DNA of 64,000 bases. Origin: Escherichia coli (GTDB lineage: Bacteria > Pseudomonadota > Gammaproteobacteria > Enterobacterales > Enterobacteriaceae). The stretch lies in NCBI RefSeq assembly GCF_024502345.1, contig NZ_JALDNN010000001.1; one strand, 5' to 3'. Made by a program: the position numbers and the translations under genes. Below, in pieces: positions 1 through 61,661 of the stretch (its first letter is position 1; each line of letters starts with the position of its first letter). Below the pieces are notes generated by a model. It saw only the letters and a list, made by a program, of their open reading frames with translations, did no database searches and was not told the DNA's origin.

Positions 1-2
1 GC

Positions 3-572
3 CTGGTGGCTTATCGCCCGCCTATCGACACCCGTAGCGTCAGTGAGATGCGCCAGATACCGCCAAACGGCTTCCCGGAAAAAGCACTTAACTTCCTGAC
101 GCCGCACCAGAAATGGGGCATTCACTCAACCTACAGTGAAAACCTGCTAATGCTGACGCTCTCTCGCGGTGGACCGATTGTCTGGATCAGCGAAACAGAT
201 GCCCGAGAACTGACCATTGTCGATAACGACTGGGTGGAAGTATTCAACGCCAACGGCGCGCTGACTGCCCGCGCGGTGGTCAGCCAACGTGTACCGCCGG
301 GCATGACCATGATGTATCACGCCCAGGAACGCATTATGAATATTCCTGGTTCGGAAGTAACTGGCATGCGCGGCGGCATTCATAACTCGGTCACCCGCGT
401 TTGCCCGAAACCAACGCATATGATTGGCGGTTACGCGCAGCTGGCCTGGGGCTTTAACTACTACGGCACCGTCGGATCGAACCGCGATGAGTTCATCATG
501 ATCCGCAAGATGAAGAACGTTAACTGGCTGGATGATGAAGGTCGCGATCAGGTACAGGAGGCGAAAAAATGA
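3..572 (+). CDS. narZ: Respiratory nitrate reductase 2 alpha subunit, C-terminal part (5' end lies outside window)
   Basis: ORF 6..572 translates to a nitrate reductase alpha C-terminus; 4-bp overlap with the following beta subunit gene; nar operon order. Confidence 0.85.
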   Translation: MVAYRPPIDTRSVSEMRQIPPNGFPEKALNFLTPHQKWGIHSTYSENLLMLTLSRGGPIVWISETDARELTIVDNDWVEVFNANGALTARAVVSQRVPPGMTMMYHAQERIMNIPGSEVTGMRGGIHNSVTRVCPKPTHMIGGYAQLAWGFNYYGTVGSNRDEFIMIRKMKNVNWLDDEGRDQVQEAKK

Positions 573-2113
573 AAATCCGTTCACAAGTCGGCATGGTGCT
601 TAACCTCGACAAATGTATCGGCTGCCATACCTGTTCGGTGACCTGTAAAAACGTCTGGACCGGGCGCGAAGGCATGGAGTACGCATGGTTTAACAACGTC
701 GAAACCAAACCGGGCATTGGTTATCCGAAAAACTGGGAAGATCAGGAAGAGTGGCAAGGCGGCTGGGTCCGCGATGTGAATGGCAAGATCCGTCCGCGTC
801 TGGGCAGCAAGATGGGCGTAATAACCAAAATCTTCGCCAACCCGGTGGTGCCGCAGATTGATGATTACTACGAACCTTTCACCTTCGACTACGAACATTT
901 GCATAGCGCACCGGAAGGCAAACATATCCCTACTGCTCGCCCGCGTTCACTGATTGACGGCAAACGGATGGACAAAGTGATCTGGGGCCCAAACTGGGAA
1001 GAACTGCTGGGCGGCGAGTTTGAAAAACGTGCCCGCGACCGCAACTTCGAGGCCATGCAAAAGGAGATGTACGGGCAGTTTGAAAACACCTTCATGATGT
1101 ACCTGCCGCGCCTGTGCGAACACTGCCTCAATCCCAGTTGCGTGGCGACCTGCCCAAGCGGCGCTATCTACAAACGCGAAGAAGACGGCATTGTGCTGAT
1201 TGATCAGGATAAATGCCGTGGCTGGCGTTTGTGCATTAGCGGTTGTCCGTACAAAAAAATCTACTTCAACTGGAAAAGCGGCAAGTCAGAAAAATGTATC
1301 TTCTGTTATCCGCGAATTGAGTCAGGCCAACCCACCGTGTGCTCAGAAACCTGCGTGGGTCGCATCCGGTATCTGGGCGTGCTGCTTTACGACGCCGACC
1401 GCATTGAGGAAGCGGCAAGCACCGAGCGCGAAGTTGACCTCTATGAGCGCCAGTGCGAAGTGTTCCTCGATCCACACGATCCCTCAGTGATCGAGGAAGC
1501 CCTGAAACAAGGTATTCCACAAAACGTGATTGAAGCTGCCCAGCGTTCGCCTGTCTACAAAATGGCGATGGACTGGAAACTGGCGCTACCGCTGCACCCT
1601 GAATATCGCACCCTGCCGATGGTCTGGTACGTTCCTCCGCTGTCGCCGATTCAGTCCTACGCAGATGCGGGCGGTTTGCCGAAAAGCGAAGGCGTGCTGC
1701 CCGCCATCGAAAGCCTGCGTATTCCGGTGCAATATCTCGCCAATATGTTGAGTGCCGGCGATACCGGTCCGGTACTGCGGGCGCTGAAACGGATGATGGC
1801 GATGCGCCACTATATGCGTTCACAAACCGTGGAAGGCGTTACTGATACTCGTGCCATCGACGAAGTAGGCCTGAGCGTCGCCCAGGTCGAAGAGATGTAT
1901 CGTTACCTCGCCATTGCCAACTATGAAGATCGTTTTGTCATCCCGACGAGCCATCGGGAAATGGCGGGCGATGCCTTCGCAGAACGCAACGGCTGCGGTT
2001 TTACCTTTGGCGACGGTTGTCACGGCTCGGACAGCAAATTCAACCTGTTCAACAGTAGCCGTATCGATGCCATCAACATCACCGAAGTGCGCGACAAAGC
2101 GGAGGGCGAATAA
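569..2113 (+). CDS. narY: Respiratory nitrate reductase 2 beta subunit (Fe-S)
   Basis: 514-aa ORF with multiple Cys-x-x-Cys ferredoxin-type clusters; position after narZ. Confidence 0.95.
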   Translation: MKIRSQVGMVLNLDKCIGCHTCSVTCKNVWTGREGMEYAWFNNVETKPGIGYPKNWEDQEEWQGGWVRDVNGKIRPRLGSKMGVITKIFANPVVPQIDDYYEPFTFDYEHLHSAPEGKHIPTARPRSLIDGKRMDKVIWGPNWEELLGGEFEKRARDRNFEAMQKEMYGQFENTFMMYLPRLCEHCLNPSCVATCPSGAIYKREEDGIVLIDQDKCRGWRLCISGCPYKKIYFNWKSGKSEKCIFCYPRIESGQPTVCSETCVGRIRYLGVLLYDADRIEEAASTEREVDLYERQCEVFLDPHDPSVIEEALKQGIPQNVIEAAQRSPVYKMAMDWKLALPLHPEYRTLPMVWYVPPLSPIQSYADAGGLPKSEGVLPAIESLRIPVQYLANMLSAGDTGPVLRALKRMMAMRHYMRSQTVEGVTDTRAIDEVGLSVAQVEEMYRYLAIANYEDRFVIPTSHREMAGDAFAERNGCGFTFGDGCHGSDSKFNLFNSSRIDAINITEVRDKAEGE

Positions 2114-2808
2114 TGCAGATCCTCAAAGTGATCGGCCTGTTGATGGAGTATCCGGACGAGCTGTTGTGGGAATGCAAGGAGGACGCGCTGGCGTTGATCC
2201 GCCGCGACGCGCCGATGCTTACGGATTTCACCCACAACCTGCTTAACGCGCCGCTGCTGGATAAACAGGCCGAATGGTGCGAAGTGTTTGACCGTGGACG
2301 TACCACATCGCTGCTGCTGTTCGAACATGTTCATGCCGAGTCCCGCGATCGCGGCCAGGCAATGGTGGACCTGCTGGCGGAGTATGAAAAGGTCGGCCTG
2401 CAGCTGGATTGTCGGGAACTGCCCGATTATCTACCGCTGTATCTGGAGTATTTAAGCGTACTGCCTGACGATCAGGCGAAAGAAGGATTGCTCAATGTTG
2501 CGCCGATCCTCGCCCTGCTTGGCGGTCGCTTAAAACAACGCGAGGCACCGTGGTACGCGTTGTTTGATGCTCTGCTGCAACTGGCGGGAAGTACACTTTC
2601 AAGTGACAGTGTCACAAAACAAGTAAACAGCGAAGAGCGCGATGACACCCGCCAGGCGCTTGATGCAGTGTGGGAAGAGGAACAGGTGAAGTTTATTGAA
2701 GATAACGCCACGGCGTGTGACAGCTCGCCGCTTAATCAATATCAGCGACGCTTTAGCCAGGATGTCGCGCCGCAATATGTCGACATCAGTGCGGGAGGTG
2801 GGAAATGA
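2113..2808 (+). CDS. narW: Nitrate reductase 2 assembly chaperone (delta)
   Basis: 231-aa ORF start overlapping narY stop; operon position. Confidence 0.9.
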
Positions 2809-3485
2809 TTCAGTATCTGAACGTCTTTTTTTACGATATCTACCCGTACATTTGTGCGACGGTGTTTTTCCTCGGCAGCTGGCTGCGCTACGACTACGGG
2901 CAGTACACCTGGCGCGCCTCCTCAAGTCAAATGCTCGATAAACGCGGGATGGTGATATGGTCGAATCTGTTCCATATCGGCATTTTGGGGATTTTCTTCG
3001 GGCACTTGTTCGGCATGTTAACGCCGCACTGGATGTACGCGTGGTTTTTGCCAGTGGCAGCGAAACAACTCATGGCGATGGTGCTCGGCGGTATTTGCGG
3101 TGTGTTGACGTTGATTGGCGGCGCAGGACTGCTGTGGCGCAGGCTGACAAATCAGCGCGTGCGTGCCACTTCCACTACGCCGGATATCATCATCATGAGC
3201 ATTTTGCTGATCCAGTGTCTGTTGGGGCTAAGTACCATACCGTTTTCAGCACAGTATCCTGATGGTAGCGAAATGATGAAGCTGGTGGGTTGGGCGCAAA
3301 GCATTGTCACTTTCCGTGGTGGATCGTCAGAGATGCTTAACGGTGTAGCGTTCGTTTTCCGCTTGCATCTGGTGTTGGGAATGACCATCTTCCTGCTCTT
3401 CCCGTTCACCCGACTGGTGCATGTGTGGAGCGCGCCGTTTGAGTACTTCACCCGCCGGTATCAGATTGTGCGCTCGCGGCGATAA
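2805..3485 (+). CDS. narV: Respiratory nitrate reductase 2 gamma subunit (cytochrome b)
   Basis: 226-aa hydrophobic ORF, 4-bp overlap with narW; operon position. Confidence 0.9.
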
Positions 3486-3563
3486 TTTTCACCCTGGCCG
3501 GATAGCCCTTCGCTCTCCGGCCACTTGCAGGCTATGATAGTTCTCCAGCCCAGGAGAACGTTA

Positions 3564-4053
3564 ATGAAACCGCAGGTTTACCACGTCGATGCTTTTACCT
3601 CTCAACCATTTCGCGGCAATTCTGCCGGTGTTGTTTTCCCCGCCGATAATCTTAGCGAAGCGCAAATGCAGCTTATCGCCCGCGAATTAGGTCATTCGGA
3701 AACCACTTTTCTGCTGCACAGCGACGACAGCGATGTGCGCATCCGCTACTTTACGCCAACCGTTGAAGTTCCGATTTGTGGTCACGCGACAGTAGCTGCA
3801 CACTATGTACGTGCGAAGGTGTTAGGTTTAGGAAATTGCACGGTCTGGCAAACATCGCTGGCAGGAAAACATCGCGTGACTATCGAAAAGCACCACGATG
3901 GTTATCGTATTTCGCTGGAACAAGGTACGCCGGGCTTTGAGCCACCGCTGGAAGGTGAAACACGTGCGGCGATTATCAACGCGCTTCATCTCACTGAGGA
4001 CGATATTCTGCCAGGCTTGCCAATTCAGGTGGCAACAACAGGACACTCAAAAG
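3564..4053 (+). pseudogene. yddE: PhzF-family isomerase YddE, 3'-truncated by IS903-family element (about 163 codons retained; the recalled full length is 297 aa)
   Basis: ATG at 3564 (MKPQVYHVDAFTS...); reading frame runs straight into the IS left inverted repeat at 4054 and stops a few codons inside it. Confidence 0.7.
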
Positions 4054-5110
4054 GGCTTTGTTGAATAAATCGAACTTTTGCTGAGTTGAAGGATCAGATC
4101 ACGTATCTTCCCGACAACGCAGACCGTTCCGTGGCAAAGCAAAAGTTCAAAATCACCAACTGGCCCACCTACAATAAAGCCCTCATCAACCGTGGCTCCA
4201 TAACTTTCTGGCTGGATGATGAAGCTATTCAGGCCTGGTATGAGTCAGCAACACCTTCTTCACGAGGCAGACCTCAGCGCTATTCTGACCTTGCCATCAC
4301 GACTGTGCTGGTCATTAAACGCGTATTCAGGCTGACCCTGCGCGCTGCGCAGGGCTTTATTGATTCCATTTTTTCTCTGATGAACGTTCCGCTACGCTGC
4401 CCGGATTACAGCTGTGTCAGCAGGCGGGCAAAGTCGGTTAATGTCAGTTTCAAAACGCCCACCCGGGGTGAAATCGCACACCTGGTAATTGATTCCACCG
4501 GGCTGAAGGTCTTCGGTGAAGGCGAGTGGAAAGTCAAAAAGCATGGCCAGGAACGCCGCCGTATCTGGCGTAAGCTGCATCTCGCCGTTGACAGTAAAAC
4601 ACATGAAATCATCTGCGCTGACCTGTCGCTGAACAACGTTACGGACTCAGAGGCCTTCCCCGGGTTAATCCGGCAAACCCACCGGAAAATCAGGTCAGCC
4701 GCCGCCGATGGCGCTTACGATACCCGGCTATGTCACGATGAACTGCGGCGTAAGAAAATCAGCGCGCTTATCCCTCCCCGAAAAGGTGCGGGTTACTGGC
4801 CCGGTGAATATGCAGACCGTAACCGTGCAGTGGCTAATCAGCGAATGACCGGGAGTAATGCGCGGTGGAAATGGACAACAGATTACAACCGTCGCTCGAT
4901 AGCGGAAACGGCGATGTACCGGGTAAAACAGCTGTTCGGGGGTTCACTGACACTGCGTGACTACGATGGTCAGGTTGCAGAGGCTATGGCCCTGGTACGA
5001 GCGCTGAACAAAATGACGAAAGCAGGTATGCCTGAAAGCGTGCGTATTGCCTGAAAACACAACCCGCTACGGGGGAGACTTACCCGAAATCTGATTTATT
5101 CAACAAAGCC
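4054..5110 (+). mobile_element. IS903-family (IS5 superfamily) insertion sequence, 1057 bp, copy 1
   Basis: 18-bp terminal inverted repeats GGCTTTGTTGAATAAATC at both ends; 1057-bp length matches IS903; identical second copy at 52638..53694; no 9-bp target-site duplication. Confidence 0.85.
4131..5054 (+). CDS. IS903-family DDE transposase (307 aa from GTG; the ORF track extends to 4086)
   Basis: ORF fills the IS; IS5-family transposase-like sequence (…NWPTYNKALINRGSITFWLDDEAIQAWY…); GTG start inferred from the 307-aa IS903 transposase length. Confidence 0.8.
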   Translation: MAKQKFKITNWPTYNKALINRGSITFWLDDEAIQAWYESATPSSRGRPQRYSDLAITTVLVIKRVFRLTLRAAQGFIDSIFSLMNVPLRCPDYSCVSRRAKSVNVSFKTPTRGEIAHLVIDSTGLKVFGEGEWKVKKHGQERRRIWRKLHLAVDSKTHEIICADLSLNNVTDSEAFPGLIRQTHRKIRSAAADGAYDTRLCHDELRRKKISALIPPRKGAGYWPGEYADRNRAVANQRMTGSNARWKWTTDYNRRSIAETAMYRVKQLFGGSLTLRDYDGQVAEAMALVRALNKMTKAGMPESVRIA

Positions 5111-5483
5111 TATGCAAGGAGTATTTGATCATGTATAAGCAATAAAAACAGCTTCAGGAAATAAGGAATATCGCAATTTTTAAACATAAAATGCGAATCG
5201 TTCAATACAAAAAAGCAGCGTTGCGTAATCTTTCCCTGATTAAATACGCTACTGCCCTACCCTGATGACATGATCTGCACTGCACTATCATATAGACATG
5301 TTTCTCAACATGCGAAAAGATGTTTTATTTTCGGATTATATTAAATTGATATTTCATATAAAAAATGAAATTACATCAATCATATAAATAATTGTACCAA
5401 CTTTAATTACTATTCATAGCAAACAAATGGATATCCAGTTAACTACGCCAGTGATTCATTAACATTAACCTCCGGCATTATTG

Positions 5484-6101
5484 TTAAATAATGACATTCC
5501 TTTTTAATACTTCTTGTAATTTCGGTAACTGACATACAGCATCAGCAATCGCACTGATATTCGTGGCATTATCCTGAAACCATTCATGCCCAGGCCCCCA
5601 TGTACGCATAGTGCAAAGATAACAGTCCACCAGCGTTAGTTGCTCACCAAACGCATAAGGTTCAGCAGTGAGCTGCGAATTCAGCCAGATATAAAGCGAT
5701 TTTCGATATTCAATAACATTCTTCTTTAACTGTTCAGGTGCGTCAGGAGCCCAACGCTCAGGGTAATCGGCGAAAGTGAATGTTGGATAGATATTAGCAA
5801 CCAGCCAGACCAATAGCCGTTGAAACTGCTGGCGTTCGGTGCGCCCAACCGGTGGCGCAAGGTCCGGGCGACGATCGAGAACCATCAATGCAATCGCCGC
5901 TGTCTCCGTCATAATCTCGTCATTTTCCAATGCCAGTGTCGGAACCTGACACAACGGGTTCAGGGTTTTCAATAACTCGCGTGAAGCTCCCTCGTGGTCA
6001 AAACCACTGACATCAACGAACTGATAAGGAATATCAGCCAGTGTTAGCATCAGCTCACTGATTGTAGAGCCCCATCCGGGTACGCCATACACCTTAATCA
6101 T
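5484..6101 (-). CDS. yncG: Glutathione S-transferase homolog
   Basis: 205-aa ORF with GST-like N-terminus; position next to ansP. Confidence 0.8.
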   Translation of the reverse strand: MIKVYGVPGWGSTISELMLTLADIPYQFVDVSGFDHEGASRELLKTLNPLCQVPTLALENDEIMTETAAIALMVLDRRPDLAPPVGRTERQQFQRLLVWLVANIYPTFTFADYPERWAPDAPEQLKKNVIEYRKSLYIWLNSQLTAEPYAFGEQLTLVDCYLCTMRTWGPGHEWFQDNATNISAIADAVCQLPKLQEVLKRNVII

Positions 6102-27591: not shown

Positions 27592-28764
27592 ATGCGTCTG
27601 TTTTCTGTTCCTCCACCCACGCTACTGGCGGGGTTTCTGGCGGTATTAATTGGCTACGCCAGTTCAGCGGCAATAATCTGGCAAGCAGCGATTGTCGCCG
27701 GAGCCTCCACTGCACAAATCTCTGGCTGGATGACGGCGCTGGGGCTGGCAATGGGCGTCAGTACGCTGACTCTGACATTATGGTATCGCGTACCTGTTCT
27801 CACCGCATGGTCAACGCCTGGCGCGGCTTTGTTGGTCACCGGATTGCAGGGACTAACACTTAACGAAGCCATCGGCGTTTTTATTGTCACCAACGCGTTA
27901 ATAGTCCTCTGCGGCATAACGGGACTCTTTGCTCGTCTGATGCGCATTATTCCGCACTCGCTTGCGGCGGCAATGCTTGCCGGGATTTTATTACGCTTTG
28001 GTTTACAGGCGTTTGCCAGTCTGGACGGTCAATTTACGTTGTGTGGAAGTATGTTGCTGGTATGGCTGGCAACCAAGGCCGTTGCGCCGCGCTATGCGGT
28101 AATTGCCGCGATGATTATTGGGATCGTGATCGTTATCGCGCAAGGTGACGTTGTCACAACTGATGTTGTCTTTAAACCCGTTCTCCCCACTTATATTACC
28201 CCTGATTTTTCGTTTGCTCACAGCCTGAGCGTTGCACTCCCCCTTTTTCTGGTGACGATGGCATCGCAAAACGCACCGGGTATCGCAGCAATGAAAGCAG
28301 CCGGATATTCGGCTCCTGTTTCGCCATTAATTGTATTTACTGGATTGCTGGCACTGGTTTTTTCCCCTTTCGGCGTTTATTCCGTCGGTATTGCGGCAAT
28401 CACCGCGGCTATTTGCCAAAGCCCGGAAGCGCATCCGGATAAAGATCAACGTTGGCTGGCAGCTGCCGTTGCAGGCATTTTCTATTTGCTCGCAGGTCTG
28501 TTTGGTAGTGCCATTACCGGGATGATGGCTGCCCTGCCCGTAAGTTGGATCCAGATGCTGGCAGGTCTGGCGCTGTTGAGTACCATTGGCGGCAGTTTGT
28601 ATCAGGCGCTGCATAATGAGCGTGAGCGCGACGCGGCGGTGGTGGCATTTCTGGTAACGGCAAGTGGATTGACGCTGGTCGGGATTGGTTCTGCGTTTTG
28701 GGGATTAATTGCCGGAGGTGTTTGTTACGTGGTGTTGAATTTAATCGCTGACAGAAACCGATAA
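27592..28764 (+). CDS. ydcO: BenE-family membrane transporter
   Basis: Hydrophobic multi-pass ORF; start taken at MRLFSVPP (the upstream extension overlaps the sutR promoter). Confidence 0.8.
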   Translation: MRLFSVPPPTLLAGFLAVLIGYASSAAIIWQAAIVAGASTAQISGWMTALGLAMGVSTLTLTLWYRVPVLTAWSTPGAALLVTGLQGLTLNEAIGVFIVTNALIVLCGITGLFARLMRIIPHSLAAAMLAGILLRFGLQAFASLDGQFTLCGSMLLVWLATKAVAPRYAVIAAMIIGIVIVIAQGDVVTTDVVFKPVLPTYITPDFSFAHSLSVALPLFLVTMASQNAPGIAAMKAAGYSAPVSPLIVFTGLLALVFSPFGVYSVGIAAITAAICQSPEAHPDKDQRWLAAAVAGIFYLLAGLFGSAITGMMAALPVSWIQMLAGLALLSTIGGSLYQALHNERERDAAVVAFLVTASGLTLVGIGSAFWGLIAGGVCYVVLNLIADRNR

Positions 28765-52637: not shown

Positions 52638-53694
52638 GGCTTTGTTGAATAAATCGAACTTTTGCTGAGTTGAAGGATCAGATCACGTATCTTCCCGACA
52701 ACGCAGACCGTTCCGTGGCAAAGCAAAAGTTCAAAATCACCAACTGGCCCACCTACAATAAAGCCCTCATCAACCGTGGCTCCATAACTTTCTGGCTGGA
52801 TGATGAAGCTATTCAGGCCTGGTATGAGTCAGCAACACCTTCTTCACGAGGCAGACCTCAGCGCTATTCTGACCTTGCCATCACGACTGTGCTGGTCATT
52901 AAACGCGTATTCAGGCTGACCCTGCGCGCTGCGCAGGGCTTTATTGATTCCATTTTTTCTCTGATGAACGTTCCGCTACGCTGCCCGGATTACAGCTGTG
53001 TCAGCAGGCGGGCAAAGTCGGTTAATGTCAGTTTCAAAACGCCCACCCGGGGTGAAATCGCACACCTGGTAATTGATTCCACCGGGCTGAAGGTCTTCGG
53101 TGAAGGCGAGTGGAAAGTCAAAAAGCATGGCCAGGAACGCCGCCGTATCTGGCGTAAGCTGCATCTCGCCGTTGACAGTAAAACACATGAAATCATCTGC
53201 GCTGACCTGTCGCTGAACAACGTTACGGACTCAGAGGCCTTCCCCGGGTTAATCCGGCAAACCCACCGGAAAATCAGGTCAGCCGCCGCCGATGGCGCTT
53301 ACGATACCCGGCTATGTCACGATGAACTGCGGCGTAAGAAAATCAGCGCGCTTATCCCTCCCCGAAAAGGTGCGGGTTACTGGCCCGGTGAATATGCAGA
53401 CCGTAACCGTGCAGTGGCTAATCAGCGAATGACCGGGAGTAATGCGCGGTGGAAATGGACAACAGATTACAACCGTCGCTCGATAGCGGAAACGGCGATG
53501 TACCGGGTAAAACAGCTGTTCGGGGGTTCACTGACACTGCGTGACTACGATGGTCAGGTTGCAGAGGCTATGGCCCTGGTACGAGCGCTGAACAAAATGA
53601 CGAAAGCAGGTATGCCTGAAAGCGTGCGTATTGCCTGAAAACACAACCCGCTACGGGGGAGACTTACCCGAAATCTGATTTATTCAACAAAGCC
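52638..53694 (+). mobile_element. IS903-family insertion sequence, 1057 bp, copy 2 (identical to copy 1, same orientation)
   Basis: Same 18-bp terminal inverted repeats; the encoded ORFs are identical to copy 1; no target-site duplication. Confidence 0.85.
52715..53638 (+). CDS. IS903-family DDE transposase
   Basis: Identical to the transposase ORF at 4131..5054. Confidence 0.8.
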   Translation: MAKQKFKITNWPTYNKALINRGSITFWLDDEAIQAWYESATPSSRGRPQRYSDLAITTVLVIKRVFRLTLRAAQGFIDSIFSLMNVPLRCPDYSCVSRRAKSVNVSFKTPTRGEIAHLVIDSTGLKVFGEGEWKVKKHGQERRRIWRKLHLAVDSKTHEIICADLSLNNVTDSEAFPGLIRQTHRKIRSAAADGAYDTRLCHDELRRKKISALIPPRKGAGYWPGEYADRNRAVANQRMTGSNARWKWTTDYNRRSIAETAMYRVKQLFGGSLTLRDYDGQVAEAMALVRALNKMTKAGMPESVRIA

Positions 53695-55383: not shown

Positions 55384-55425
55384 AGGTATCACATGCTAAA
55401 AATTAGAATGTTCAGTATCTGGACG

Positions 55426-56016
55426 TTACTGTTTCGGTCGCAGATTCTCATCAAATACCAGACGTTTCCTGTTCGGTTCAACTTCCCGCAATGGCTCAAC
55501 TTGATGCAACGTCTGCTTACAACGAGTCACCAGCACCTGATACTCATGCGTACCCTGCTTTTTCCATGCCAGCTCCTGCTCACTGAGTTCACGAATCGCT
55601 TTCGCCGGGCTGCCGACAATCAGGTAATTGGCAGGCATTTCTGCTTTGGCTTTCACAAATGCGGATGCGCCAACAATGCTGTTCTCGCCAATCACCGCGC
55701 CGTCCATCACTACCGCGTTCATTCCCACTAATGCATTGCGGCGGATAATGCAACCATGAAGGATAGCGCTATGACCAATATGCCCATCTTCTTCCACGAC
55801 AGTATCCTGTTCGGGAAAACCGTGCATAACGCAATTATCCTGAATGTTCGCGCCATCTTTCACTACGATACGACCAAAATCGCCACGCAGATTGGCATTT
55901 GGCCCAACGTAAACGCCCTTGCCGAGAATAACATCGCCGATCAATACCGCTGTCGGATGGACAAAACTCTCTTCTGGCACAACCGGAGTCAGACCATCTA
56001 TCTGGTAAATTGGCAT
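55426..56016 (-). CDS. paaY: Hexapeptide-repeat thioesterase PaaY
   Basis: 196-aa left-handed beta-helix ORF; position downstream of the paaX remnant. Confidence 0.85.
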
Positions 56017-56555
56017 AACGCCTCCTGTTCAATATTCAAACCGCCAAAACGTTGAAAATACAGGCTTCCCGGCGCAGGCAGTTCACCGACCGAGGTTTCA
56101 CCTTTTTCACTAACGAACGCTAAAGCAGCAGGCGCTACGCGCTGATAAATGTTGATACACAGCTGACGCGCCGTATGCCCTGCCCAGTGCGCCGGAAGCA
56201 ACTCCTCTGGCAACAATGGGTCTTTAAGGACGACACGGCGATAAAAATGGATCAGTAAAAGCTGAATATGAAATGCACGCTCCGGGGTTAACTCGTCTGC
56301 TGCCTCTTTTAACAGCGGCACCAGCGGGCGGAATGACTGAATAAAGGTTTCGTACATGGCATTTTGTTCAGTTAAATGCCAGCACTCTTCCACTCTGGCA
56401 CGCAGTGCTGCACGAGAAAGCGCCAGTGGTATTTGCGCTTCAAAACAAATCACGTTATCCGCCAGAAGGGCATTATTTAGCGCATTACGTGCGGCGGGAC
56501 GGTTAAGGGTCAGCAACAATACTTGTTGCTGACGGCTGACGATCAGTTCGCTCAT
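55998..56555 (-). pseudogene. In-frame fusion remnant: first ~31 codons of enoyl-CoA hydratase PaaF joined to the C-terminal ~154 codons of repressor PaaX
   Basis: N-terminus MSELIVSRQQQVLLLTLNRPAARNALNNALL is a crotonase-type start, but the remainder lacks crotonase features and sits where the paaX 3' end should be; junction near 56462. Confidence 0.6.
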
Positions 56556-57193
56556 GCCATCCCCTTCGCGTCAAAGTCAACCACCACATCGCTGGTCAGC
56601 GGCAGTGCCTGGCAACTCAACACATAGCCTGCGGCCAGTTCATCCGGTTCCAGACTGTAATTGGTTTCCATCGCCACTTTGCCACGCAGCACTTTGCATT
56701 TGCAGGTCGCACAGACGCCGCCTTTGCAGGCATAGGGCAGATCAGCCCCCTGGCGCAATGCCGCATCGAGAATGCTTTCATCGTCGGCATTAAGCACGAT
56801 TTCCCGATCCCGCCCATCCTGACGTACAGTCACTTTTTGTCCGTCACTTTGCACGTTAACGCTACGTTTGACGCGCGTGCCAGGCGTATTAAACCGCTCC
56901 AGATGAATGGTTTTATCTGGCATTCCCAGTGCTTTTAAGGCGGCTTCCGTCTCATCCATCATCGCCGCCGGACCACAAATAAATGCCTCATCATAAAGAC
57001 GAAAATTAATGAGCGAGGCCCCAAGTGACTGTAATTTTTCACCGTCAATACGCCCGTGAAGCAGATCGCTGTCGAGGGTTTCCTGACTGAAAATGCACAA
57101 CAACTGTAAACGCTGAGGATATTTGTCTTTCAGGTCTGCCAGTGCCTGGCGAAACATCATGCTCTGGCTGGTACGGTTACCGTAGATCAGGGT
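56552..57193 (-). pseudogene. paaE: 3' fragment of paaE (ferredoxin-NADPH reductase subunit; 2Fe-2S C-terminal domain retained, N-terminal FAD domain deleted)
   Basis: CKGGVCATCKCKVL 2Fe-2S motif; the frame extends upstream of the listed Met to about 57193, where homology ends. Confidence 0.65.
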
Positions 57194-57956
57194 GATGCCC
57201 GCACAAAACCAGCGACATGCTCTGCAACTGGCTTGTGCAGGCGGCGGTAGCCTTGCGGGAACGCTGGTGACGGCTGATCCGCAAATTGCGCGTCAGTTTA
57301 TTGCCGACGCGGCACGTACGCATGGGCGAATTCAGATCCTCAATGAAGAATCGGCAAAAGAATCCACCGGGCATGGCTCCCCACTGCCACAACTGTTACA
57401 TGGTGGGCCTGGTCGCGCAGGAGGCGGTGAAGAATTAGGTGGTTTACGAGCGGTGAAACATTACATGCAGCGAACCGCTGTTCAGGGTAGTCCGACGATG
57501 CTTGCCGCTATCAGTAAACAGTGGGTGCGCGGTGCGAAAGTCGAAGAAGATCGTATTCATCCGTTCCGCAAATATTTTGAGGAGCTGCAACCAGGCGACA
57601 GCCTGTTGACTCCCCGCCGCACAATGACAGAGGCCGATATTGTTAACTTTGCTTGCCTCAGCGGCGATCATTTCTATGCACATATGGATAAAATTGCTGC
57701 TGCCGAATCTATTTTTGGTGAGCGTGTGGTACATGGATATTTTGTGCTTTCTGCGGCTGCGGGTCTGTTTGTCGATGCCGGTGTCGGTCCGGTCATAGCT
57801 AACTACGGGCTGGAAAACTTGCGTTTTATCGAACCCGTAAAACCAGGCGATACCATCCAGGTGCGTCTCACCTGTAAGCGCAAGACGCTGAAAAAACAGC
57901 GTAGCGCAGAAGAAAAACCAACAGGTGTGGTGGAATGGGCGGTATGGGCACGCTAA
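57194..57956 (+). pseudogene. paaZ: 3' fragment of paaZ (end of ALDH domain plus MaoC hot-dog hydratase domain); last ~20 codons replaced at the tynA junction
   Basis: MaoC-like region …[19 protein letters not shown]…VVHGYFVL…; divergent from the paaE fragment with no intervening paaA-D. Confidence 0.65.
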
Positions 57957-58963
57957 CCTCACCAATTGCTCGTGGTAAAGATGCCCCGTCTAACGCAGTG
58001 CTCCTTAATGAAACCATCGCCGACTACACTGGCGTGCCGATGGAGATCCCTCGCGCTATCGCGGTATTTGAACGTTATGCCGGGCCGGAGTATAAGCATC
58101 AGGAAATGGGCCAGCCCAACGTCAGTACCGAACGCCGGGAGTTAGTGGTGCGCTGGATCAGTACAGTGGGTAACTATGACTACATTTTTGACTGGATCTT
58201 CCATGAAAACGGCACTATTGGCATTGATGCCGGTGCTACGGGCATCGAAGCGGTGAAAGGTGTTAAAGCGAAAACCATGCACGATGAGACGGCGAAAGAT
58301 GACACGCGCTACGGCACGCTTATCGATCACAATATCGTGGGTACTACACACCAACATATTTATAATTTCCGCCTCGATCTGGATGTAGATGGCGAGAATA
58401 ACAGCCTGGTGGCGATGGACCCAGTGGTAAAACCGAATACTGCCGGTGGCCCACGCACCAGTACCATGCAAGTTAATCAGTACAACATCGGCAATGAACA
58501 GGATGCCGCGCAGAAGTTTGATCCGGGCACGATTCGTCTGTTGAGTAACCCGAACAAAGAGAACCGCATGGGCAATCCAGTTTCCTATCAAATTATTCCT
58601 TATGCAGGTGGTACTCACCCGGTAGCAAAAGGTGCCCAGTTCGCGCCGGACGTGTGGATCTATCATCGTTTAAGCTTTATGGACAAGCAGCTTTGGGTAA
58701 CGCGTTATCATCCTGGCGAGCGTTTCCCGGAAGGCAAATATCCGAACCGTTCTACTCATGACACCGGTCTTGGACAATACAGTAAAGATAACGAGTCGCT
58801 GGACAACACCGACGCCGTTGTCTGGATGACCACCGGCACCACACATGTGGCCCGCGCCGAAGAGTGGCCGATTATGCCGACCGAATGGGTACATACTCTG
58901 CTTAAACCATGGAACTTCTTTGACGAAACGCCAACGCTAGGGGCGCTGAAGAAAGATAAGTGA
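57941..58963 (+). pseudogene. tynA: 3' fragment of copper amine oxidase tynA (C-terminal catalytic domain, about 340 codons)
   Basis: TPQ-site motif VGNYDY and conserved His ligands; N-terminal domains and signal peptide absent. Confidence 0.7.
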
Positions 58964-58973
58964 TTGTTTCAGA

Positions 58974-59002
58974 CAAAAAAACGGCACCAGGTGCCGTTTT
59001 TT
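58974..59002. terminator. Bidirectional terminator between tynA and feaB
   Basis: A7-ACGGCAC-CAG-GTGCCGT-T6. Confidence 0.6.
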
Positions 59003-59020
59003 ACTTATGAGCGAACCAGA

Positions 59021-60523
59021 TTAATACCGTACACACACCGACTTAGTTTCACACCAACCGTCCAGCCAGTCGGGGCCAAAATCACGGCCCGTTCCTGACT
59101 GCTTCATCCCACCAAACGGTAAGTTAGCGTCAATTAAGGTATGGCTGTTTACCCACACCGTCCCTGCCTGTAAGCGATCGCTATATTCCAGAGCCTGGGA
59201 GAGATTTTGCGTCCAGACACTGGCAGTTAAGCCATATTCCGTGTCGTTTGCCAGTTGTAACGCCTCTTCTCCATCCGCTACTCGCACCAGGTTTACCACC
59301 GGACCAAACACCTCTTCACGAGTTAAGCGCAATTTAGCATCGGGATTTACCACCAGCGTTGGCGCAACATAATACCCCTCTCCGGCTGGTCCATTCGACC
59401 CGCGAATCAGCTCTGCTTGCTGTGCCTGCGCATCGTCGAGGAATGAACACACTTTGTCGCAGTGCGCACGAGAAACCAAAGGGTTAATCTGTGCAACAGG
59501 TGACATCCCCGGTCCCACTTGCAACGATTTTACCGCCTGCTCAAATCCACTAACCAGCGTGTCAAACAACGGCGCTTCAATATAAATTCGCGAACTGGCG
59601 GCGCATACTTGCCCTTGATTCAGGAAGCTTCCGGTCATCAAGCCTTCAATAACCCATTGCGGATCAGCATCTTTTAATACAATTGCCGGGTTTTTACCGC
59701 CCAGTTCCAGCGTTACACGCGTTAAGTGATCAGCAGCAGTTCTGGCAATACCTTTTCCCGTCGCGGTTGAACCGGTAAAACTGATTTTCGCAACATGAGG
59801 ATGTGACGTCAGGGCCGCGCCGCATACAGCACCTGACCCGGTGACCACATTAAAAACGCCATCAGGGATACCAGCCTCGCTGGCCAGTTCCGCCACGCGC
59901 AACATCGTCAGTGGCGTGGTTTCCGAAGGCTTAATCACGATTGAACAGCCTGCTGCCAGTGCTGGCATCACCTTCCACATACCAATCATCAACGGAAAGT
60001 TCCATGGCACAATTCCCGCCACTACGCCAACCGGCTCTTTACGCGTCCAGGCCTGATAACGCGCCCCCTGGGGTAAGGGAATCGACAAGTCCAGCGTTTT
60101 ACCCGCGATTTTGGTCGTTAACCCGGCGGTATAACGCATCCAGTTCAGCGTACAGCCCACTTCAAAAGCACGGGAAATGGCAATTGACTTGCCTTGCTCC
60201 AGGGTTTCCAGTTGCGCCAGCTCCTCACTGTGCTGTTCCACCAGATCGGCAAAACGTAGCAGAATACGTTCACGCTCTGCGGGTAATCGCCCGGCCCAGC
60301 GACGCGAGACAAAGGCCCGCCAGGCAGACATGACTGCGTTATCTACATCCGCTTCGTTGGCATCAGCAGTAGACGCAATTTCTTGCCCGGTGGCCGGATC
60401 AAAGATCGCCAATCGTTTTTCACTTTGTGCGGGGCCTGGACGACCATCAATATAAAGACCGTGTTGACGATCGAGAAACTGTTGGACCTGGCTTAATACT
60501 GCTACATGCGGCTCTGTCATCAC
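59021..60523 (-). CDS. feaB: Phenylacetaldehyde dehydrogenase
   Basis: 500-aa ALDH ORF. Confidence 0.9.
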
Positions 60524-60755
60524 TTTTCCTTATTATTTACCCAGTGTGATTTCAGTGTACGCAGCGACAAGAAAAGTCACTTTTTTCGCTGTGACATTCG
60601 CTTTGTCAGCTGTGACAAGCTCCGCAAATCGTGACAATAACCGCTTATGTCTCTATGCCTGACAAGACTTATTTCCTATAGTCAGGCTCATTAGCATCGT
60701 TTACTGCAACACAAATGCAACAATAAAAATACATTTCACAGAGCGAAAACGTGCC

Positions 60756-61661
60756 ATGAACCCCGCAGTGGATAATGAGTTTCAGCAATGGCTTTCCCAA
60801 ATCAATCAGGTATGCGGAAATTTTACCGGACACCTGCTGACTGAGCGTTACACGGGTGTACTGGATACGCATTTTGCCAAAGGACTAAAGCTGAGTACCG
60901 TGACAACCAGCGGGGTGAATTTATCCCGCACCTGGCAGGAAGTAAAAGGCAGCGACGATGCCTGGTTTTACACCGTTTTTCAGCTTAGTGGTCAGGCAAT
61001 AATGGAGCAGGATGAGCGTCAGGTGCAGATTGGCGCTGGCGATATTACGTTACTCGATGCCTCACGCCCCTGTTCGCTTTACTGGCAGGAGTCTTCTAAA
61101 CAGATTTCATTACTTTTGCCACGCACTCTGCTGGAACAATATTTTCCCCATCAAAAACCTGTCTGCGCAGAAAGACTGGACGCTGACTTACCCATGGTGC
61201 AACTCAGTCATCGCCTGTTACAGGAGAGCATGAATAATCCGGCACTTTCTGAAACAGAAAGTGAAGCTGCGCTACAGGCGATGGTGTGTCTGCTGCGCCC
61301 GGTACTTCATCAGCGGGAATCTGTTCAACCTCGTCGTGAACGTCAGTTTCAAAAAGTGGTTACGTTGATAGACGATAATATTCGCGAAGAGATATTACGC
61401 CCGGAGTGGATAGCCGGAGAGACAGGTATGTCAGTACGTAGTTTGTACCGAATGTTTGCCGATAAAGGTTTGGTGGTCGCGCAATATATTCGTAACCGTC
61501 GTCTCGATTTTTGTGCAGATGCGATTCGCCATGCCGCAGATGATGAAAAACTGGCAGGCATCGGCTTTCATTGGGTATTTTCTGACCAGAGTCATTTTTC
61601 AACGGTATTTAAGCAACGCTTTGGGATGACGCCAGGCGAGTATCGACGTAAATTCCGCTAA
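60756..61661 (+). CDS. feaR: AraC-family activator of tynA/feaB
   Basis: 301-aa ORF with C-terminal AraC HTH. Confidence 0.85.
   Translation: MNPAVDNEFQQWLSQINQVCGNFTGHLLTERYTGVLDTHFAKGLKLSTVTTSGVNLSRTWQEVKGSDDAWFYTVFQLSGQAIMEQDERQVQIGAGDITLLDASRPCSLYWQESSKQISLLLPRTLLEQYFPHQKPVCAERLDADLPMVQLSHRLLQESMNNPALSETESEAALQAMVCLLRPVLHQRESVQPRRERQFQKVVTLIDDNIREEILRPEWIAGETGMSVRSLYRMFADKGLVVAQYIRNRRLDFCADAIRHAADDEKLAGIGFHWVFSDQSHFSTVFKQRFGMTPGEYRRKFR

Follow-up and report, generated by a model that had tools for sequence, protein, structure and literature searches.

Introduction

Decay of dispensable catabolic islands by deletion is known in the Enterobacteriaceae and has been described for Shigella and host-restricted Salmonella. 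Illegitimate deletions between short homologies are likewise known in Escherichia coli, where they are RecA-independent and have classically been mapped in lacI. Fork stalling and template switching or microhomology-mediated break-induced replication (FoSTeS/MMBIR) is a further known process with which the locus described here can be compared. This locus is the paa-tynA-fea region of an E. coli genome (NCBI RefSeq assembly GCF_024502345.1, contig NZ_JALDNN010000001.1), of which one stretch of 64,000 nucleotides, referred to here as the window, was analysed. The region serves the catabolism of phenylethylamine and phenylacetate, with tynA, feaB and feaR alongside paaZ, paaA-K, paaX and paaY. 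Three scarless deletion joints, named J1, J2 and J3, interrupt it in the window. An earlier note on this DNA read them either as stepwise reductive evolution of a dispensable aromatic-catabolism island or, given their regular spacing, as the footprint of laboratory deletions or an assembly artefact. The analysis supports the first of these readings. With good confidence, the locus can be described as the stepwise natural decay of a dispensable island by microhomology deletions, in which J2 and J3 came first and J1 came later.

Structure of the three joints

Comparison by blastn with E. coli K-12 MG1655 (locus L003) resolves positions 55,425-61,000 of the window into four collinear blocks of the paa-tynA-fea region, and the junctions that the earlier note had placed at about 56462, 57194 and 57941 are confirmed to within a few nucleotides (Table 1). 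J1 removed most of paaF, paaG-K and the 5' part of paaX. At J2, paaE and paaZ have both lost their 5' parts, and paaD-A and the divergent promoter region are gone; at J3, the missing DNA comprises the paaZ end, 1,250 bp of tynA and the intergenic region that carries the tynA promoter. Together the three internal deletions account for a loss of 12.4 kb. All breakpoints lie inside open reading frames (ORFs), and the joints give out-of-frame junk apart from J1, where the first 31 codons of paaF run in frame into the 154 C-terminal codons of paaX. The remnant sizes given earlier, about 0.73 kb for paaE and about 0.75 kb for paaZ, hold at 733 and 752 bp, but the former piece is not paaE alone and also includes the 31 paaF codons.

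The parental sequences are collinear and abut directly, without filler or other inserted DNA, and neighbouring blocks overlap by 2, 3 and 5 bp at J1, J2 and J3. Only these 2-5 bp (CA, TGA and CGGTA) are shared between the partner sites, with no extended homology in the flanking ±32 nt. IS-mediated adjacent deletion would place the end of an insertion sequence (IS) at the joint, and none is found at J1-J3. Homologous recombination would use direct repeats of tens of bp at the end points, which are absent from all three joints. Site-specific recombination fits no better, with partner sites that share only 2-5 bp and no recombinase gene in the locus. On the sequence of the joints, RecA-independent, microhomology-mediated illegitimate recombination is the best explanation and the most likely mechanism. 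Matches of 2-5 bp would be expected from replication slippage, template switching or end-joining, and neither a mobile element nor a site-specific system would have been needed.

Table 1. Features of the paa-tynA-fea region and its neighbourhood. Positions refer to the window unless a locus (L number) is given.
Feature	Position	Strand	Size	Description
Block 1	55,425-56,464			paaY and 3' part of paaX; 96.6% identity to K-12
Block 2	56,463-57,195		733 bp	First 93 bp of paaF and last 644 bp of paaE; 99.0% identity to K-12
Block 3	57,193-57,944		752 bp	Internal paaZ fragment, ends 88 bp short of gene end; 98.1% identity to K-12
Block 4	57,940-61,000			Last 1,024 bp of tynA, then feaB and feaR; 99.4% identity to K-12
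J1	56463..56464		6,433 bp gone (D1)	paaX (L003 22024) to paaF (L003 15590); microhomology CA
J2	57193..57195		4,421 bp gone (D2)	paaE (L003 14858) to paaZ (L003 10436), head to head; microhomology TGA
J3	57940..57944		1,584 bp gone (D3)	paaZ (L003 9685) to tynA (L003 8100); microhomology CGGTA
paaY	55426..56016	-	196 aa	Full length; ORF, Hexapep domain, collinear with K-12 paaY
paaF::paaX chimeric ORF	55998..56555	-	185 aa	From translation and Pfam
paaE 3' remnant	56552..57195	-	644 bp	Gene callers give a 201-aa ORF from an internal ATG
Palindrome TACGGT-T-ACCGTA	57172..57184 (L012 11556-11568)		13 bp	Perfect; in paaE remnant, 17 bp from J2
paaZ internal fragment	57193..57944	+	752 bp
tynA 3' remnant	57940..58963	+	342 aa	ORF called across J3
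feaB	59021..60520	-	499/500 aa	Full length, Pfam domains kept
feaR	60756..61661	+	301 aa	Full length, Pfam domains kept
IS903-type element	52638..53693	+		Replaces 5' end of ynbC, all of ynbB and 3' part of ynbA
Loci tied to palindrome breakpoint	L013, L018, L019, L021, L022, L024, L025, L027, L037
"Repaired" contig stretches	L006 1-499, L008 1-266, L051 28-1464
Loci compared for IS903 position	L057, L005, L006, L059, L055

Occurrence of the joints in independent samples

The whole arrangement occurs in none of 5,426 complete E. coli genomes, and none of J1, J2 and J3, each searched singly in the same genomes, has an identical counterpart there. An apparent match to J2 in HS-01 turned out to be a different deletion. 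Carriers were instead found by exact-protein look-ups with ORFs specific to the junctions, an approach that biases the sampling of alleles toward particular ORFs. The PaaF::PaaX fusion created by J1 was recovered from 7 contigs, the 253-aa PaaZ fragment with the J3 tail from 15 and the 342-aa TynA fragment from 3. The carriers comprise the NCBI isolate assembly GCA_050022275.1 (a 116-kb contig), Logan contigs of 38 and 124 kb, and metagenome contigs assembled by MEGAHIT and SPAdes. All have the same breakpoints and are 100% identical to the window in every shared segment. Base-identical joints are thus present in the output of at least four assembly pipelines and in more than 15 samples, which include human-associated and other metagenome assemblies and many unrelated sequencing runs.

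These carriers decide between a natural and an artificial origin of the joints. Nothing favours an artefact of assembly or consensus except the odd look of the region, and a microhomology of 2-5 bp is far below any assembler k-mer. Since independent assemblies are identical at the joints, assembly error is ruled out for practical purposes, and we regard it as extremely improbable. The scarless joints and the similar-sized remnants might suggest laboratory gene deletions. No FRT, lox, cassette or other scar, IS or foreign DNA is present at J1-J3, however, the breakpoints lie in ORFs, metagenomes and unrelated runs share the joints, and relatives carry different combinations of them. The absence of scars together with the independent assemblies makes a laboratory origin just as improbable. 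Neither of the artificial origins raised in the earlier note is therefore borne out. The joints are real and natural, and they mark one rare wild E. coli lineage.

Order of the deletions

Relatives of the window carry J2 and J3 together with intact paaF-paaK and paaX (L028, L029/L055, L031, L032 and L033). These genomes show 0 mismatches to the window on either side of J1. Their haplotype, which resembles that of strain S3, runs for 1,265 bp without one difference across the right-hand J1 site, and it is also continuous over the left-hand J1 site relative to L027. Because the haplotype with only J2 and J3 is unbroken across both J1 sites, J1 is a later deletion in a J2+J3 background. The order is thus J2+J3 first and J1 later, in at least two steps. 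An independent marker agrees with this order: the IS903 near ynbA is absent from a genome with only J2 and J3 (SRR24000611) and present in all J1 carriers whose contigs extend that far. The comparison with close relatives that the earlier note had proposed for ordering the deletions has in this way found shared joints and the order of J1 relative to J2+J3.

The first step, J2 and J3, would have killed the pathway by taking away paaA-D for the epoxidase, the two divergent promoters, half of paaZ and the 5' part of tynA. In the second step, a sub-lineage that also gained IS903 next door would have lost paaF-paaK, by then of no use, together with the 5' part of paaX through J1. Every known promoter of the stretch from paaY to the tynA remnant would then be gone, and the stretch is most likely inert.

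Within the first step, no clean genome with J2 only or J3 only was found, and a probe for J3 alone (full-length PaaZ with the J3 tail) returned no record. On the haplotype of the window, neither J2 nor J3 is seen without the other (nine places are shown among the 15 contigs with the 253-aa remnant), and they may be two deletions or a single "deletion-island-deletion" event. A single FoSTeS/MMBIR template-switching event could have produced J2 and J3, or even all three joints, with the islands of about 0.74 kb representing the length of the copied tract. The constant pairing of J2 and J3 without a clean single-joint intermediate agrees with such an event, as do the retained orientation of the island and the use of microhomology at both joints. 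Comparable alleles of this locus exist in other genomes, since L018 is a two-joint allele with a 103-bp paaA island and L024 is a four-joint allele. For all three joints the proposal is refuted by the later age of J1, so that the 733-bp remnant is no copied tract. Islands elsewhere measure 103 and 198 bp and show no characteristic length, and a contig with J2 and without J3 (L051) argues weakly against a joint origin of J2 and J3, but its haplotype is switched. We consider one event for J2 and J3 a serious possibility that falls somewhat short of an even chance.

The regular spacing of the joints, which led the earlier note to consider laboratory deletions or an assembly artefact, does not point to a common cause. 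The 733-bp remnant lies between J1 and J2, two joints of different age, and its size was therefore not set by one mechanism. With randomly simulated breakpoints, two remnants differ by 19 bp or less with a probability of 0.0055, or 0.039 if both are required to be smaller than 1 kb. The near-equality of 733 and 752 bp is nominally unusual, but it was noticed after the fact and is best read as coincidence.

Several observations weigh against simple stepwise decay. Two short metagenome contigs (L006 and L008) have J1, yet their paaE continues past J2, and the Logan contig L051 has J2 and runs on through the J3 site. Two or three deletions in one 20-kb region whose flanks show no substitutions exceed what a low uniform deletion rate would give, and the deletion rate may have been raised locally or selection may have played a part. 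The breakpoints of J1, J2 and J3 lie 7, 17 and 0-1 bp from those of unrelated alleles, a closeness not accounted for by purely random breakage.

In all three discordant contigs the haplotype changes at the joint in question or close to it. Within the 733-bp remnant, L006 matches the S3 type with 0 differences, and 9-11 differences follow in the next 499 bp, the closest lying 4 bp (relative to L023) and 35 bp (relative to S3) from J2. In L051, 8 positions of the 752-bp remnant depart from the window. In addition, the series of nested IS903 deletions described below puts L006 after the triple-joint state. Reading L006 and L008 as true "J1-only" intermediates and L051 as a true "J2-only" intermediate is rejected on account of these switches. 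The contigs are better read as deleted DNA regained by homologous recombination, or as strain-mixture contigs. Deletion alleles appear to be re-patched by recombination in population data.

Decay of the island in other lineages

Loss of the island is common in E. coli. No match to paaE is present in 2,281 of the 5,426 complete genomes (~42%), and other internal deletions are found in other lineages (A7, HS-01, 26561, O68:H12 97.3, ETEC1716 and the strain-165 type). A frameshift in the sister genome SRR24000611 splits feaR into ORFs of 158 and 143 aa (L010 8822-9726 / L029 11562-12466), and the decay of the island is thus continuing. The stepwise reductive evolution suggested in the earlier note is upheld by the relatives that carry only J2 and J3, by this frameshift and by the share of genomes without paaE. 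The losses fit relaxed selection on a dispensable, repeatedly deleted island, and they were probably neutral.

Alternatively, the losses may have been selected, for example by avoiding H2O2 from TynA or toxic epoxide or aldehyde intermediates of a partial paa pathway. Deletion of the same core (paaA-E and paaZ) or inactivation of paaX has happened independently in many lineages, and the locus described here has taken several hits without flanking substitutions. Against this, the pathway was dead after J2 and J3, so that J1 brings no obvious benefit, and relaxed selection on a dispensable island equally predicts repeated loss. From the pattern of the sequences, a selective origin would seem unlikely.

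Among paa clusters that are otherwise intact (L038-L043; L012 ~4330-4400), paaX carries a 13-bp tandem duplication, a 1-bp deletion, an 8-bp deletion or a nonsense codon. These independent lesions suggest repeated loss of the repressor. NCBI draft assemblies (L052-L054 and L056) that are rich in IS1 and IS3 and Shigella-like share the exact 115-aa truncated YnbA. In these drafts the whole paa-tynA-feaB block is gone, and IS1 adjoins a feaR fragment.

Reuse of breakpoints

The paaE remnant contains a perfect palindrome close to J2 (Table 1). The 201-aa PaaE fragment occurs in 111 blocks of the collection, with many different neighbours. In unrelated E. coli, at least seven independent rearrangements have their paaE breakpoint exactly in the middle of the palindrome, whose general form is TACGGT-N-ACCGTA (HS-01, ETEC1716, L018, L019, L021/L025, L022 and L024), and these breaks use microhomologies of 2-4 bp. 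ETEC1716 keeps the opposite side of the palindrome, L024 is a reciprocal inversion, and in L027 an IS3-family element is inserted 3-6 bp from the centre. The probe behind most of the central breaks could detect breaks anywhere in at least 82 bp, and breaks within ±150 bp occur in at most 8 of 3,145 complete genomes, two of them at the centre. Given this wide range of the probe and the two central breaks among eight, the clustering is real. Further close pairs exist. The strain-165-type deletion (L001 4156-4160) and J3 share one GTA as their paaZ breakpoint but keep opposite sides of it, and the paaX breakpoint of that deletion is 7 bp from that of J1 (window 56457-56464). The paaA breaks of L018 and of strain 97.3 are 4 bp apart. 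About 0.3 such close breakpoint pairs would be expected by chance.

Such reuse raises the possibility of fragile sites, at which sequence-specific breakage, nicking or fork stalling, not neutral slippage, seeds the deletions. The candidate sites would be the paaE palindrome TACGGTNACCGTA, the paaZ site ...GGGCGGTA^GAGG and the paaX site ...CGTTA^TCCGCCA^. The seven independent alleles at the palindrome centre with the nearby IS, the shared GTA in paaZ and the pairs of breakpoints 7 and 4 bp apart all argue for fragile sites. However, a break in the middle of the palindrome did not give rise to J2 itself, which is 17 bp away and has left the palindrome whole. None of the six parental sites stands out in single-strand folding (z between -0.65 and +0.8), no breakpoints fall at other copies of GGTNACC in the locus, paaX lesions elsewhere are scattered, and partner sites are alike partly because microhomology demands it. 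Fragile sites of this kind are accordingly a possible but rather doubtful explanation, and the named sites are put forward with the same reserve.

Particular sources of breakage can be compared with the same data. A hairpin or cruciform cause is rejected, as folding at the six parental sites is no better than that of shuffled sequence. The palindrome contains the restriction-type motif GGTNACC, but no breakpoint falls at any of the four other copies of this motif in the locus. As for a gyrase site, the supplementary text of the Topo-Seq study does not contain these genes, and the published motif is long and degenerate. The paaX site is not supported as a hotspot with many partners, the lesions there being scattered small mutations. 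The candidate sources that can be named are restriction attack of the GGTNACC type, a topoisomerase or nickase site, and a bound protein. Breakpoint reuse points, tentatively, to sequence-specific breaks, nicks or fork stalls, and it is doubtful, if conceivable, that the joints of the window are partly products of fragile sites. If breakpoint reuse is borne out by an unbiased census, the locus would offer a natural system for the determinants of illegitimate-recombination hotspots in wild bacteria.

Remnants, orphan genes and the rest of the window

The fragments left by stepwise decay retain parts of their former domains. PaaX_C is the sole Pfam domain of the PaaF::PaaX fusion, whose DNA-binding N-terminus is lost, and only the 2Fe-2S ferredoxin domain is left in the PaaE remnant. 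The paaZ fragment keeps the MaoC hydratase domain and has lost the aldehyde dehydrogenase domain and the last 88 bp; it is 100% identical to the allele of O121 RM8352. The signal peptide and N-terminal domains are missing from the TynA remnant, as are ~78 positions at the start of the catalytic-domain profile.

The paaZ-paaA, paaK-paaX and paaZ-tynA intergenic regions lie inside D2, D1 and D3, respectively. These regions hold the known promoters of the paa regulon, and with their deletion the 3.5 kb from paaY to the tynA remnant is probably silent. The earlier note had described paaY, feaB and feaR as intact. All three are full length and keep their domains, but paaY has lost its known promoters and is probably not expressed. 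Judged from sequence, paaY and the remnants are probably silent DNA still to decay, not retained functions, whereas feaB and feaR have simply not yet been hit. In reconstructions of pangenomes or metabolism, the orphan genes (paaY, the PaaF-PaaX fusion and the fragments of PaaE, PaaZ and TynA) should not be treated as functional.

Next door to the island, the lesion at the IS903-type element is a separate, IS-anchored deletion, apart from the scarless joints. In J1 carriers, the distance from the end of IS903 to codon 115 of ynbA is 337, 189 or 0 bp, the window having 0, and the positions form a series of nested IS-adjacent deletions. The 47 kb between 5.5 and 52.6 kb of the window are collinear with strain S3 and contain no other scarless deletion. 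At 28763/28764, S3 has an IS200/IS605-family element (insQ/tnpA, 1.75 kb) that the window is without. Positions 1-5485 do not align with S3, which has an RHS element there. A Shigella-like decay of the whole genome is rejected, as the remaining 47 kb are collinear with S3 bar the IS903 lesion and the IS200/IS605 difference. The decay is locus-specific and is not part of a genome-wide reduction.

Comparison with known systems

The locus resembles reductive evolution in other Enterobacteriaceae in that a non-essential pathway is lost piecemeal, fragments and orphan genes stay behind, and relatives show the stages. Unlike the decay in Shigella and Salmonella, the damage is at one locus and no IS is found at the paa joints. 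Nested deletions anchored by an IS are present next door, at IS903, whereas J1-J3 have no IS at the joint. The joints share with lacI-type deletions the matches of 2-5 bp, the absence of an insert, the kilobase scale of the loss and the proximity of some breakpoints to a short palindrome. They differ in being alleles of a natural population, not selected laboratory mutants. As in FoSTeS/MMBIR, the 752-bp island between J2 and J3 has kept its orientation, and the two joints use microhomology and are inherited together; a difference is that J1 is a separate, later event, and the simultaneity of J2 and J3 is only possible.

A further comparison is with the strain-165-type paaX'-paaZ' deletion, found in about 20 complete genomes, which affects the same island on a related paaY-paaX haplotype (99.3%). 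In contrast to the allele of the window, it consists of one deletion of 12.3 kb, and the last 88 bp of paaZ survive together with an undamaged tynA. Neither allele derives from the other, because each retains DNA that the other lacks, and their flanks differ by 0.7-1.2%. A literature search did not find these alleles described. The change resembles classical microhomology-mediated gene decay, a well-known kind, of which these particular alleles would be new cases.

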